Shown here: one piece after another, positions 12,325 through 61,023 of the stretch
Layout: each line of letters begins with the position of its first letter
Position numbering within the stretch: the first letter of the stretch is position 1
Source of the DNA: Gammaproteobacteria bacterium
GTDB taxonomy: Bacteria; Pseudomonadota; Gammaproteobacteria; GCA-001735895
DNA: 61,023 nucleotides
Assembly (NCBI GenBank): GCA_024232855.1
Contig: JAAEPH010000056.1
Location: forward strand, 1-61,023
Reading direction: 5' to 3'
Translations under genes and position numbers: made by a program
The notes under the pieces: generated by a model
What the model saw: only the letters and a program-made list of their open reading frames with translations
Database searches by the model: none
What the model was told of the DNA's origin: nothing

Positions 12325-12401
<77 letters not shown>

Positions 12402-27202: not shown

Positions 27203-27287
27203 TGGTGCCGATGGCCGGACTCGAACCGGCACAGCTTTCGCCACTACCCCCTCAAGATAGCGTGTCTACCAATTCCACCACATCGGC
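27203..27287 (-). tRNA. leuU: tRNA-Leu (GAG)
   Basis: GCCGATGTGGTGGAATTGGTAGACACGCTATCTTGAGGGGGTAG...GGTTCGAGTCC...GGCACCA; long variable arm; follows secG. Confidence 0.97.
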
Positions 27288-38857: not shown

Positions 38858-39760
38858 ATGAATCACTTTGCGCGAGCCGTCGCCTACGTGCTGCTCGCGA
38901 TCCTGTTGTTCGATTTACAGGGAGTCTTCATCAAATTCCTGGGGGCGCGTTACCCGGTACAGCAGCTGGCGGGTTTTCGCAATATTTTCGGCCTGATCCC
39001 AAGCCTGCTGGTGCTGCTGCTGTCGCACGACTGGCACTCCCGCGGGCGCATGTTGAAAATCCGCCAATGGCGCCTCGGTTTACTTCGCGGCCTTTTCATC
39101 GCCGTCGCACAGTTCTGCTTTTACCTGTCGATAACCAAAATGGCCCTGGCGACGGCTACAACGCTGACCTATATCAGCCCGGTGCTGATAACGATGCTTT
39201 CGATCCCGATCCTCAGGCACAGCGTCGGCCTGTGGCGATGGCTGGCGGTCGTCGTCGGTTTTGTGGGCGTGCTGATAATCATGGCGCCCGGCAGCGAAGT
39301 CTTCACCCCCTACAGCCTGCTTCCCGTCGTCGCGGCCTTCGGATACTCCCTGTCAACCGTTTGCGTTCGACTTTTCGACGGGCACAATCCGACCGCCCTG
39401 ATCAACATGTACGCCTCCGCGGGGGCGCTGCTCGGGTCACTGGCGATACTGTTCGCCACCAGCGGATACCAGACGGTCGAATCGTTACAGGACTGGGGGA
39501 TGCTGCTGTCCACGGGCATGGTTGGCGGATTCGCGGTACTGGCCCTGATCAACGCCTACCGGCTGGCGCGGCCCTCCAGCCTGTCGCCCTTCGAGTACTT
39601 CGGCATACCCTTCGCCTTTATTCTGGGCTGGCTGTTTTTTGACGAGGCGCCCTTCGAGCAATTGATCCCCGGCGTATTCCTGATCGTGGCGGGCGGCATG
39701 TTGATCGCCTGGCGCGAGCGTAAAAAGCACATCGAAACCACACCCGCCCACACCGAATAA
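38858..39760 (+). CDS. DMT/EamA-family transporter
   Basis: About ten hydrophobic segments in two repeats; SLSPFEY motif; start at 38858 or 38828. Confidence 0.9.
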   Translation: MNHFARAVAYVLLAILLFDLQGVFIKFLGARYPVQQLAGFRNIFGLIPSLLVLLLSHDWHSRGRMLKIRQWRLGLLRGLFIAVAQFCFYLSITKMALATATTLTYISPVLITMLSIPILRHSVGLWRWLAVVVGFVGVLIIMAPGSEVFTPYSLLPVVAAFGYSLSTVCVRLFDGHNPTALINMYASAGALLGSLAILFATSGYQTVESLQDWGMLLSTGMVGGFAVLALINAYRLARPSSLSPFEYFGIPFAFILGWLFFDEAPFEQLIPGVFLIVAGGMLIAWRERKKHIETTPAHTE

Positions 39761-39771
39761 CGTCAATCCAA

Positions 39772-39947
39772 TTGTCACAGCAGGTAGTTAAAAGAGGTTC
39801 TCGGTAGAGTAGGGGCCAGGCGAAACCTGGCCCCTACTCTACCGAGAACCTGTCCGGGAAGCATCCGCGCCTCTGCGCCTCCGCGAGAACCTTCCTGGTA
39901 AATGTCCGCGCCTCCGCGAGAACCTGCCCGGGAGCATCCGCGGTCTA
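39772..39947. mobile_element. Degenerate MITE/REP composite with group II intron DVI palindrome (core 39804-39842) and tandem CGAGAACC units
   Basis: 57-bp palindrome at 39795-39851; flanks resemble both ends of the element at 41589-41836. Confidence 0.8.
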
Positions 39948-41570: not shown

Positions 41571-41588
41571 ATCCTGCCTGTATGCGGG

Positions 41589-41836
41589 CTAACCCGCACA
41601 TCTCACCGATTTCCTGCTGCGGACGCTTCCTTGGAGGGGTTCTCGCAGAGGCGCGGAGAGCGCAGGGCGCGCGGAGGGTATTTTGCAGGGTGTGTGCCTG
41701 GGCATCTCTGACGCAGACTTCGATAACTTCTTTATCCCCCGCCCCCCCGGCGCTCACTGCGCTCTCCGCGTCTCTGCGAGAACCTTTACTGAAGTAGTCC
41801 CGCGTCGTGGACCTGCTGGTGACAAATGCGGGCTAG
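41589..41836. mobile_element. MITE (family A-type ends) carrying an intact inverted REP pair; empty intron target
   Basis: CTAA-CCCGCACATCTCACC...GGTGACAAATGCGGG-CTAG; 28-bp inverted arms at 41638-41665 and 41757-41784 (one mismatch). Confidence 0.8.
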
Positions 41837-41940
41837 ACATCGCTAACAGGATTTCCGACTATAACGTTCTGGTCCCAGGCCGGTGGCTAACCTGGAATGG
41901 CAAACCACTCCACATTCATCGCAGACTAGAGTTTCGGATT

Positions 41941-42507: not shown

Positions 42508-42527
42508 CCAAACATCGGGTAATTGAG

Positions 42528-42628
42528 GGTTCTCAGCTAAGGTTCTCGGTAGAGTAGGGGCCAGGTTTCGCCTGGCCCCTACTCTACCGCCTCTGCGAGA
42601 ACATTACCGGGGAAGCATCCGCGGGCTA
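42528..42628. mobile_element. Degenerate MITE/REP composite with second DVI palindrome (core 42549-42587)
   Basis: GGTTCTCG|GTAGAGTAGGGGCCAGG-TTTCG-CCTGGCCCCTACTCTAC|CGCCTCTGCGAGAAC. Confidence 0.8.
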
Positions 42629-43402
42629 ACGTCGCATGAAATCGAGCACCAGCTGACTGAATTCCTGCGGTTTTTCGGCGTGCAACCAGTGTCCCGCCGC
42701 GGCGATCGTAGCGATACTGGCGTTTTCGAAATGACGCTCGATGACTTCGATTCCGTTATCGTCGATGTAGTCGGAACTGGCGCCGCGAATGAACAATGTC
42801 GGCAATTTACCGAGCCAGTCCCGCGGCAATTCGTCGAAGCCGGTAAGCGCATCCATATCGCGCTGAATCACCCGCCAGTTGATACGCCAGCGCCAGGACG
42901 CTGATTCTCGCACCAGGTTTTGCAGTAGAAAGGCACGCAGCTGATCTTCGGGGATATTGGGACGCAAGGCATGATCGACCTGGGTACGCGACTCGAAGCT
43001 GTCGAGGTCGAGAGCGAGAATCGGCTCGATCAAATCATCGTAGTGGTGATAATAGGCAAGCGGTGCGATATCGGCGACCACCATTCGCGAAACCAGTCCG
43101 GGATATTGAATCGCCAGCGTCATCGCGACCTTGCCACCCATGCTGTGGCCGAGTACTCGACAATGGTTCAGACCCAACCGCTCCAGTAAGCGCGCCACGT
43201 CCTCGGCCATGGCCGCGTAACTCATTTCGTCCGCATGAAAAGACTGCCCGTGATTGCGCAGATCGATGGCGAACACCTCGTAGCTTTCCGCAAGACGGCG
43301 CAGCTGCGAGTGCCAGTTCCGGCTCGAACCGAACAAACCGTGCATGACGATCAGCGGAGATCCGCTACCCGCCTTGCTGTAGTACAGATCGGGCTCCGCC
43401 AT
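42626..43402 (-). CDS. Alpha/beta-fold esterase (YbfF-like)
   Basis: HGLFGS, DLRNHG, GHSMGG, GHWLHAE. Confidence 0.93.
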   Translation of the reverse strand: MAEPDLYYSKAGSGSPLIVMHGLFGSSRNWHSQLRRLAESYEVFAIDLRNHGQSFHADEMSYAAMAEDVARLLERLGLNHCRVLGHSMGGKVAMTLAIQYPGLVSRMVVADIAPLAYYHHYDDLIEPILALDLDSFESRTQVDHALRPNIPEDQLRAFLLQNLVRESASWRWRINWRVIQRDMDALTGFDELPRDWLGKLPTLFIRGASSDYIDDNGIEVIERHFENASIATIAAAGHWLHAEKPQEFSQLVLDFMRR

Positions 43403-60835: not shown

Positions 60836-60891
60836 CCCCGCATTTCTCACCACCGGATCGACGGCGCGGGACTACTCAATAAAGGTTCTCG
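60832..60891. mobile_element. End of a MITE/REP composite forming the intron 3' exon
   Basis: Reverse complement closely matches 41777-41836; starts at the CTAG containing the nucleotidase stop. Confidence 0.8.
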
Positions 60892-61023
60892 GTAGAGTAG
60901 GGGCCAGGCGAAACCTGGCCCCCCTCGTCAAACGCAGCATGCGGCTTTCCCGCACTACGCTTTCCTGCTGCCTTCACAATAGAGCTATCGCAAGGGAATT
61001 TAGCAGTCAGAGCTGCAACAAGC
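60892..61023 (-). mobile_element. Group II intron 3' end (domains V and VI); remainder outside the window
   Basis: DV AAGCGTAGTGCGGGAAAGCCGCATGCTGCGTTT has the AGC triad, GAAA loop and 2-nt bulge. DVI GAGGGGGGCCAGG-TTTCG-CCTGGCCCCT-A-CTC has the bulged A and ends in AC. Confidence 0.92.

Follow-up and report, generated by a model that had tools for sequence, protein, structure and literature searches.

How the extreme 3' end of a group II intron can come to lie in a bacterial genome as a perfect inverted duplicate of itself is the question raised by positions 42549-42587 of the DNA studied here. The stretch that was analysed, referred to as the window, is 61,023 nt long and makes up the entire contig C56 of a draft genome of 550 contigs (G000). 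A second palindrome of the same kind is present at 39804-39842. The two share their arms and differ in the loop and in one junction, so that any account of their origin has to cover both the common design and the unequal flanks.

Structure of the palindromes

The sequence at 42549-42587 is a perfect palindrome: a 17-nt arm, the domain VI loop, and the same arm again in exact reverse complement. The right arm, CCTGGCCCCTACTCTAC (42571-42587, plus strand), represents the last 17 nt of the intron, including the branch-site TA, which is unpaired in the real domain VI. The left arm, GTAGAGTAGGGGCCAGG (42549-42565), is the exact reverse complement of these 17 nt. Between them lies the loop TTTCG (42566-42570), which has the sense of a plus-strand intron and is flipped with respect to the CGAAA at 39821-39825. 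When the flanking G and C are added, the arms extend to 18 nt (42548-42588). This 18-mer arm occurs five times in the window, against 0.01 occurrences expected from shuffles. Since the portion of domain VI that is present amounts to 17 nt plus the loop, the palindrome is a remnant and not an intron.

The flanks belong to the terminal repeats of a repeat-derived element (42510-42632) that consists of outer arms and this palindrome. On the left is GGTTCTCG (42541-42548), the outer 8 nt of the B-side terminal repeat and the reverse complement of the usual 3' exon CGAGAACC. On the right, CGCCTCTG followed by CGAGAAC (42588-42602, plus strand) is the 3' exon of the parent intron and part of the A-side terminal repeat, which is cut at 42588 one 8-nt unit further in than at 39843. 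The right flank retains an intact homing site, CCTCTG/CGAGAAC (slashes mark insertion points throughout), between 42595 and 42596. The complete reading of 42541-42602 is GGTTCTCG-GTAGAGTAGGGGCCAGG-TTTCG-CCTGGCCCCTACTCTAC-CGCCTCTGCGAGAAC. In the first palindrome (39804-39842), the arms at 39804-39820 and 39826-39842 are identical to those of the second, the loop is CGAAA and both junctions are standard, with GGTTCTCG at 39796-39803 and CGAGAACC at 39843-39850; the reading of 39796-39850 is GGTTCTCG-GTAGAGTAGGGGCCAGG-CGAAA-CCTGGCCCCTACTCTAC-CGAGAACC. An earlier note on this DNA had described the palindrome at 42549-42587 as having the same arms, a flipped loop, the usual left exon and a different right junction compared with 39804-39842, and the sequence bears out all four statements. 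Its wording of exons and REP arms is also appropriate, as the arms come from the 3' end of a group II intron, with REP-like terminal repeats carrying the homing site on either side. To the right of the first palindrome, at 39843-39944, the A-side terminal repeat together with outer arm occurs as three incomplete copies in tandem, which read CGAGAACC...CATCCGCG, CCTCTGCGCCTCCGCGAGAACC... and CCTCCGCGAGAACC..., respectively.

As single-stranded DNA, 42540-42603 folds with -27 kcal/mol (z -8.9) and 39795-39851 with -34.1 kcal/mol (z -13.9). A test for an intrinsic terminator failed, as no T run follows the hairpin on either strand; the sequence 3' of the hairpin is CGCCTCTGCGAGAAC at the second palindrome and CGAGAACCTGTCC at the first. 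An Rfam search gave no match at 42549 or 39804, and no ribozyme core was found in the palindrome 42549-42587. Elsewhere in the window, the same database recognises two tRNA genes on the minus strand (RF00005), at 12328-12401 (62.5 bits) and 27206-27287 (51.3 bits).

Both palindromes were also compared with the Logan contigs of run X1, an independent assembly that possibly derives from the same data. Records in this set end or start at 39822, and others end at 42568 and start at 42561; no single X1 contig spans either palindrome. Palindrome-specific words are nevertheless present, namely the left arm plus TTT at 42568 and CGAAA-CCTGGCCCC-TACTC from 39822. The breaks are presumably a property of k=31 graphs at hairpins. 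Other loop letters are not listed among the X1 contigs, which by their nature cannot reveal rare variants or loop mixtures.

The parent group II intron

The window contains one end of the intron from which the arms are derived. The 3' end of an intron copy occupies 60892-61023 on the minus strand, with domains V-VI at 60892-60964 and its 3' exon CGAGAACC at 60884-60891, and the contig end cuts the intron off. Domains V-VI match the Rfam family RF00029 at 40.1 bits against a gathering score of 40, and seven copies in the genome score at or above this cut-off. The fifth copy of the arm in the window, at 60891, forms no palindrome and runs on into the RF00029 match. By synteny, the 5' half of this copy is located on contig C295. 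The real domain VI reads GAGGGGGGCCAGG-TTTCG-CCTGGCCCC-TA-CTC-TAC/, followed by the 3' exon CGAGAACC, and its stem is a stable 9-bp GC helix according to DNA folding. The palindrome arms are built from the perfect complement of the domain VI 3' strand and not from the bulged 5' strand GAGGGGGGCCAGG of the intron.

The 5' ends of the intron, GTGTGTCAGGTTAAGCC..., are found at the ends of contigs C174, C295 and C465, each preceded by ...YCTCTG. At four junctions, ...YCTCTG is followed by GTGTG, which matches the GUGYG expected of a group II 5' end, and about 6 nt of the 5' exon are common to these four junctions. Within the intron, CAGAGA is complementary to the TCTCTG of the 5' exon. The closest full-length relative, which was found in a Gemmatimonadales genome (L004, about 1,962 nt), carries CAGATT at the homologous stretch, and its 5' exon ends in AATCTG. 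This covariation of CAGAGA and CAGATT with the 5' exons supports a putative EBS1-IBS1 assignment.

The L004 protein, of 453 aa, combines RVT_1 and GIIM domains but has no endonuclease domain. Among solved structures, its closest relatives are the IIC enzymes 6AR1 (1.4e-49) and 7UIM (8.6e-45), so that a IIC-type protein is judged here on the L004 protein and not on the copy in the present genome. The intron body is absent from this assembly, in which contigs below 500 nt were filtered out, and the reverse transcriptases (RTs) on C231, C37 and C15 are other ones. Evidence for an RT in this assembly consists of a 395-nt deleted variant with an RT motif on C174; the full RVT_1 plus GIIM protein is seen in L004 alone. 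In this variant (C174:1-395, minus strand, together with C40:6767-6934), an internal deletion fuses domain I, just past the EBS1 region, to the RT reading frame. The same C174/C40 copy shares with C6 a C-to-G substitution in the 5' strand of domain VI. Additionally, a fragment of a second, unrelated group II intron, with RT and GIIM domains, is found at C15:16100-16976 (minus strand), and domain V-VI matches below the cut-off (33.5-34 bits) are located at C186:56-130, C93:56-130 and C59:508-581. The genome therefore harbours more than one intron family.

The target element

The intron invades a repeat element of about 320 nt that has a homing site, YCTCTG/CG, in each of its terminal inverted repeats. 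These repeats, GGTTCTCGC[A/G]GAGGCGC and the complement GCGCCTC[T/C]GCGAGAACC, form 59 left-right pairs with a spacing of mostly 104-133 nt. With its many copies, its terminal inverted repeats and its presence or absence between strains, the element has the features of a REP-like MITE. An intact copy of 322 nt lies at 41587-41908, with terminal repeats at 41638-41652 and 41770-41784 whose homing sites are both unoccupied; it is missing in contigs of related strains (runs X2 and X3), where 41586 joins 41909. The intron is positioned between ...CTCTG and CGAGAACC of one terminal repeat, and either repeat and either strand is used. Empty sites left in the genome comprise 71 of the type CTCTG/CGAGAA and 67 of the type CTCCG. 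Further homing sites occur one or two units further in, because the repeat is built of 8-nt units (CGCCTCYG). Such shifted sites are in use at C194 (3' exon CGCCACCGCGAGAACC) and C40 (3' exon CGCTCCCCGCGTCTCCGCGAGAACC). Words resembling GGGCTAG mark the ends of the repeat element and are also found in the empty sites of related strains.

Both the element at 42510-42632 and that at 39761-39870 can be aligned with the intact element along their two outer arms, the B arm on the left and the A arm on the right. In both of them, the outer 8 nt of each terminal repeat are left, and the palindrome takes the place of all that lay between. The possibility that the palindrome was inserted into an empty palindromic site made of GGTTCTCG plus CGAGAACC (GGTTCTCGCGAGAACC) was rejected, as this sequence has no match in the genome at one mismatch or fewer.

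Contigs of the related strains X2, X3 and X4 from the same study join 42509 to 42633 by 13 other letters. Moreover, the intron 17-mer is found in none of 24 genomes of the same genus. As the related strains lack the element at this site and the same-genus genomes searched lack the intron, the element, the intron invasion and the scar are taken to be recent and lineage-specific. At 39760-39945, same-genus relatives have intergenic regions of about 40-90 nt, and these short regions therefore provide no pre-insertion state. For 42549-42587, the emptiness of 42510-42632 in the related strains supports a recent event, and probably one independent of the first scar. The earlier note had proposed such independence, and the comparison upholds it: the two elements have the same orientation yet opposite loops, the right junctions differ, and the copies are separate, lying 2.7 kb apart.

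A different repeat is seen at the contig ends of this assembly. A 36-nt motif ending in ...TTCTCCGGGCTAG is located about 105-140 nt from the end of around 100 contigs (e.g., C6:1-36 and C334:10556-10591). It is probably the terminus of a very high-copy insertion sequence (IS), which would account for an assembly of 550 contigs.

Intron ends and scars in the genome

The intron 17-mer has 18 matches in the genome on both strands. Seven of them are intron 3' ends, on C6, C32, C40, C49, C56, C515 and C536, and since the intron is a collapsed repeat, most of these are found some 130 nt from the end of a contig. Five palindromes, each matched twice by the 17-mer, are distributed over C56 (two), C61, C64 and C312. 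The remaining match is a direct-repeat scar on C194. Among the five palindromes, the arms and the loop (in either polarity) are 100% identical, while the outer arms diverge far more. The left flank is GGTTCTCG or GATTCTCG in all five, and the right flank is CGAGAA[C/T]C in every case except on the 42588 side. All ten junctions are at homing-type positions (YCTCYG/CG). A tabulation of loop orientation and exon register, which the earlier note had suggested, was thus obtained: relative to the element arms, the loops appear by our classification to be divided 2:2 with one ambiguous case, and the shifted right junction is confined to 42588. At single copies, six junctions have the standard register and two (C40 and C194) are further in.

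Two of the matches are products of other kinds. The scar at C194:3198-3229 (minus strand) is 32 nt long, reads GTGTGTCAGG/TTTCGCCTGGCCCCTACTCTAC and is located at the 8-nt-shifted site of an otherwise intact element; in it, the first 10 nt of the intron are joined to domain VI at a CAGGTT repeat. The copy at C515:5215-5301 is a 5'-truncated intron, the last 87 nt of which are joined to the element core at a TG microhomology, with the loss of about 25 nt of the 5' exon and with CGAAAACC as 3' exon.

As judged by synteny with relatives, the 3' ends on C56, C40 and C49 belong with the 5' ends on C295, C174 and C465, and the 3' end on C32 adjoins the end of an IS. A doubly occupied element was seen at none of these four 3' ends resolved by synteny, C536 not being among them. 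In four of six singly occupied elements with a visible partner repeat, the partner site is competent and empty (CTCTG).

Palindromes in other genomes

A perfect palindrome of the same design is present in a Gemmatimonadaceae genome (locus L018 in genome G057), and its loop, GACAACC, is that of the intron copy of that genome (L016). The right junction coincides with the standard homing site of a 32-copy repeat, ...TCTTCCG/CG[G/T]NTTCCGGTGTGA. The left junction, as read from a MAFFT alignment of this heterogeneous repeat family, falls within the repeat, about 66 nt beyond the partner terminal repeat, which is intact, and the symmetry of the flanks extends over 3 nt (ACG and CGT). The left flank is not repeated in G057, where it gives background-level matches. 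This layout fits what would be expected of a single fold-back event joined by microhomology. In the family of this genome, one of 73 genomes has the palindrome, namely G057 itself. The 5' part of the L004 intron has no match in G057, and 5' junctions were not seen there. The 32-copy REP-like element, ...CCTTCCGCGTGCTGTCCTTCCGCGTCTTCCG/CGGATTCCGGTGTGAGAGGCTGTTCCCC... (e.g., L073, L079 and L090), is the homing target of the related intron, and it shares periodic repeats of the CGCGGAGG type with the gammaproteobacterial element.

Two degenerate palindromes occur in other gammaproteobacterial and metagenome contigs, at L011 (the same as L031 and L032) and L042, and these are devoid of flanking inverted repeats. 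The exact palindrome has no match in JGI metagenome contigs. The 17-mer alone is found at 15 metagenome loci, 10 of them outside an intron context, and at 18 loci of the genome contig collection, 8 of them outside such a context. For instance, it occurs by chance in a conserved coding stretch, ...GAAGCCTACAAAGAAG/CCTGGCCCCTACTCTAC/AAAAGCC..., at L035, L036, L038, L043 and L006 (acidobacterial-type contigs). These matches are unrelated to introns and call for caution in surveys based on the motif alone.

Origin of the palindrome

The reading that we prefer, with a probability of roughly 0.45, is that the palindrome is the footprint of one abortive retrohoming insertion in which the cDNA snapped back on itself at domain VI. 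It is favoured because the left junction of the Gemmatimonadaceae palindrome falls inside the repeat and not at the mirrored homing site. The intron RNA would reverse-splice at a point in the A-side repeat that lies one 8-nt unit inward of the usual one, and the nascent DNA strand would copy the 3' exon and next the 3' strand and loop of domain VI. After a few bases of the 5' strand had been copied, the cDNA could pair with itself, GGGGCCAGG with CCTGGCCCC, and self-templated extension would reach the end of the intron and the first exon bases (CG). The cDNA end would then pair again upstream, and continued synthesis would bypass both the intron RNA and the element core. For the four symmetric scars, the partner repeat would offer at least 8 nt of complementarity; at 42549, there would be just CG and a weak CG.AGAG match. 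This weak match, which may have favoured the landing, would consist of CG, a small internal loop and AGAG, with the CGCAGAG of the partner repeat facing the reverse complement of ...CTCTACCG.

Several lines of evidence are in line with snap-back of the cDNA. The anatomy of the arms, which follows the complement of the domain VI 3' strand, is exactly what a self-copied cDNA yields. Other aborted products, the truncation on C515 and the scar on C194, exist in the same genome, the two degenerate palindromes are found without inverted repeats at their flanks, and the L004 intron protein is free of an endonuclease domain. Furthermore, group II intron RTs carry out snap-back synthesis and microhomology end joining in vitro, as described in the accessible portion of bioRxiv 10.1101/2022.03.14.484287. 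On the other side, a search of the open-access literature returned no report of in vivo snap-back products of group II introns. A fold-back that lands in register after copying the exon should also yield a symmetric product, GGTTCTCGCAGAGGCG/.../CGCCTCTGCGAGAAC. The left junction at 42548 is without the 8-nt unit, and a landing on the 2-nt CG is therefore required. This landing would have to hit exactly the mirrored homing position despite the 16 CG dinucleotides of an intact element. Moreover, the homing-type positions of all ten junctions are explained by two insertions with no extra assumptions.

Two inverted insertions followed by a deletion between the 9-nt repeats of the domain VI stem are a possible, though somewhat doubtful, origin. 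A plus-strand intron would sit in the A-side repeat at the 8-nt-shifted site and a minus-strand intron in the B-side repeat at the standard site, giving an intermediate with two inverted copies of about 2 kb around a core of about 105 nt. GGGGCCAGG and CCTGGCCCC would form direct repeats between the inverted copies, and replication slippage between either of them would leave the observed 17 + 5 + 17 nt, a product that cDNA snap-back yields just as exactly. In a one-step variant, the cDNA of a second incoming intron would switch template into domain VI of a resident inverted copy. The strength of a double insertion is its uniform account of all ten junctions, the unequal ones included, each at YCTCYG/CG. 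Both registers are known from the single copies listed above, both terminal repeats serve as targets on either strand, and the 2:2 division of the loops (with one ambiguous) would be set by which 9-nt repeat was used. The scar on C194 attests deletion at short direct repeats in this genome, three of the four element loci in the 61-kb contig have been touched by the intron, which hints at local preference, and it is established, according to the accessible portions of PMC12524634 and PMC4134008, that inverted repeats stimulate copy-choice deletion between short repeats.

The numbers are less favourable to a double insertion. Random placement of 18 insertions in 45-90 elements gives 0.85-1.7 doubly hit elements, compared with five seen against eight single hits; P for at least five is 0.0065 with 45 elements and 0.0002 with 90. 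Hence, a 2-4-fold coupling or 'hot' elements would be needed, and the partner site stays competent and empty in four of the six singly occupied elements. The doubly occupied intermediate is absent from the four resolved ends, although a short-lived precursor would escape view. In addition, the Gemmatimonadaceae palindrome has a left junction away from the mirrored site, next to an intact partner repeat. The earlier note had argued that unequal exons favour two separate insertions over simple fold-back. The logic is valid, as in-register fold-back predicts a symmetric product and the left junction is exactly at the mirrored homing position, but the argument is not decisive: chance would produce too few double hits, none of the resolved elements was doubly occupied, and the Gemmatimonadaceae left junction lies inside the repeat.

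It is unlikely that the fold-back took place after integration, on intron DNA already in the chromosome. The product would be the same as that of an abortive insertion, the 9-bp GC helix of the domain VI stem is stable, and hairpin-promoted slippage of replicative polymerases is known (PMC4134008, in the accessible text). However, the realignment would have to leap the element core and about 2 kb of intron DNA at all five loci by means of short homology, and this jump distance is all that separates such a course from snap-back during an abortive insertion.

Copying of one founding palindrome-bearing element to five loci, by transposition or gene conversion, is very improbable. Compared with related strains, the element is itself an insertion, and the arms and loop are 100% identical in five copies. 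Nevertheless, the arms are equally identical to the extant intron, and from copy to copy the outer arms vary far more than the palindrome. That one scar was copied is rendered unlikely by the loop polarity, which varies relative to the unlike A and B arms, by the different right junction of the 42549 copy and by the separate element copies involved. The earlier note's case against plain copying of the first scar is strengthened by the intact, unoccupied element that lies between the two palindromes.

An assembly artefact, in the form of a graph shortcut through the collapsed intron repeat, is scarcely credible: the intron is collapsed and missing in a 550-contig draft with contigs that end about 130 nt into it, and the Logan contigs of X1 break within the palindromes, but words made of the loop, CCTGGCCCC and TAC occur in no real intron copy and yet are present in those contigs, the five loci have unique, syntenic flanks, and a sixth example comes from an unrelated genome. 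Fold-back during assembly was likewise rejected, as the flanks are different unique DNA that is adjacent in related genomes.

Relation to known systems and significance

Truncated copies of group II introns resemble the palindromes in being non-functional 3'-end remnants at a bona fide homing site with full-length copies alongside, and C515 is a classic 5'-truncated copy in the same genome. Unlike these, the remnant described here is reduced to 17 nt plus the loop and is an inverted duplicate that forms a perfect hairpin. In RmInt1, fragmentation is mainly a loss of the 3' terminus, as stated in the accessible portion of PMC4496777. The in vitro snap-back of group II RTs provides a further parallel, in that the 3' end of a strand pairs upstream on itself, is extended and is joined via short homologies. 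That study used oligonucleotides in vitro and DNA repair in cells, whereas snap-back is proposed here solely from genomic scars; its accessible text does not treat intron-insertion products (bioRxiv 10.1101/2022.03.14.484287).

When Tn10 undergoes nearly precise excision, a small palindrome stays behind. The palindromes are comparable in being small palindromes at a former inverted-repeat site, with the 9-nt domain VI repeats as crossover points. In contrast to Tn10, two inverted copies would be required and none were observed, and the repeats are retroelement copies, not IS arms. The copy-choice mechanism for such deletions is outlined in the accessible portion of PMC12524634.

Introns of group IIC, such as B.h.I1, GsI-IIC and the E.r. 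IIC intron, insert beside inverted repeats or terminator stem-loops. The location of IIC introns downstream of inverted repeats is also given in the accessible portion of PMC1702495. The present intron is similar in the L004 protein, which is devoid of an endonuclease domain and has IIC enzymes as nearest solved relatives, in the approximately 6 nt of shared 5' exon and in the use of inverted-repeat elements as targets in two phyla, a likeness judged from the protein of a relative and the target site and not from ribozyme structure. It differs in inserting within the 3' arm of the long stem of the element, 8 nt from the end, and not just past a stem-loop. REPs are reportedly targets of IS elements, and REP, REPIN and MITE targets of mobile elements resemble the multi-copy intergenic inverted-repeat element described here. 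In this case, unlike that of REPs and IS elements, the invader is a retroelement that relies on RNA-DNA pairing, and the core of the repeat is replaced by the hairpin of the invader.

No description of a palindromic domain VI remnant at homing sites was found in open-access papers or bioRxiv, and PMC8742464 does not mention palindromes or hairpins. Each of the ingredients is known separately: truncated introns, repeats as targets, in vitro snap-back and the palindromic remnants that inverted-repeat transposons leave. A perfect hairpin made from the last 17 nt of an intron and left at its homing sites appears to be new.

The integration of cDNA by endonuclease-less introns in vivo is known mostly from selected full-length products, and the scars would record the failures. 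They provide base-level data on where the cDNA left its template, within the 9-bp domain VI stem, and on how it was rejoined. Such scars recur in at least two phyla and can easily be searched for as the last N nt of an intron, the loop and the reverse complement. A far-reaching and rather improbable proposal is that, during the mobility of endonuclease-less, hairpin-seeking group II introns in vivo, cDNA snap-back has domain VI palindromes as its general signature, and that these feed back on the intron. The hairpin at 42549-42587 is located 2 nt upstream of the intact CCTCTG/CGAGAAC site; a hairpin followed by a short IBS1 is the layout preferred by IIC-type introns, and scars could therefore create or protect homing sites. 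If the two-insertion route is true, elements with mirrored homing sites would be traps that turn active introns into inert hairpins. The scars also show how a retroelement remodels a bacterial repeat family by swapping its core for a very stable hairpin between convergent genes, and they are relevant to work on retroelement integration and on bacterial repeats.
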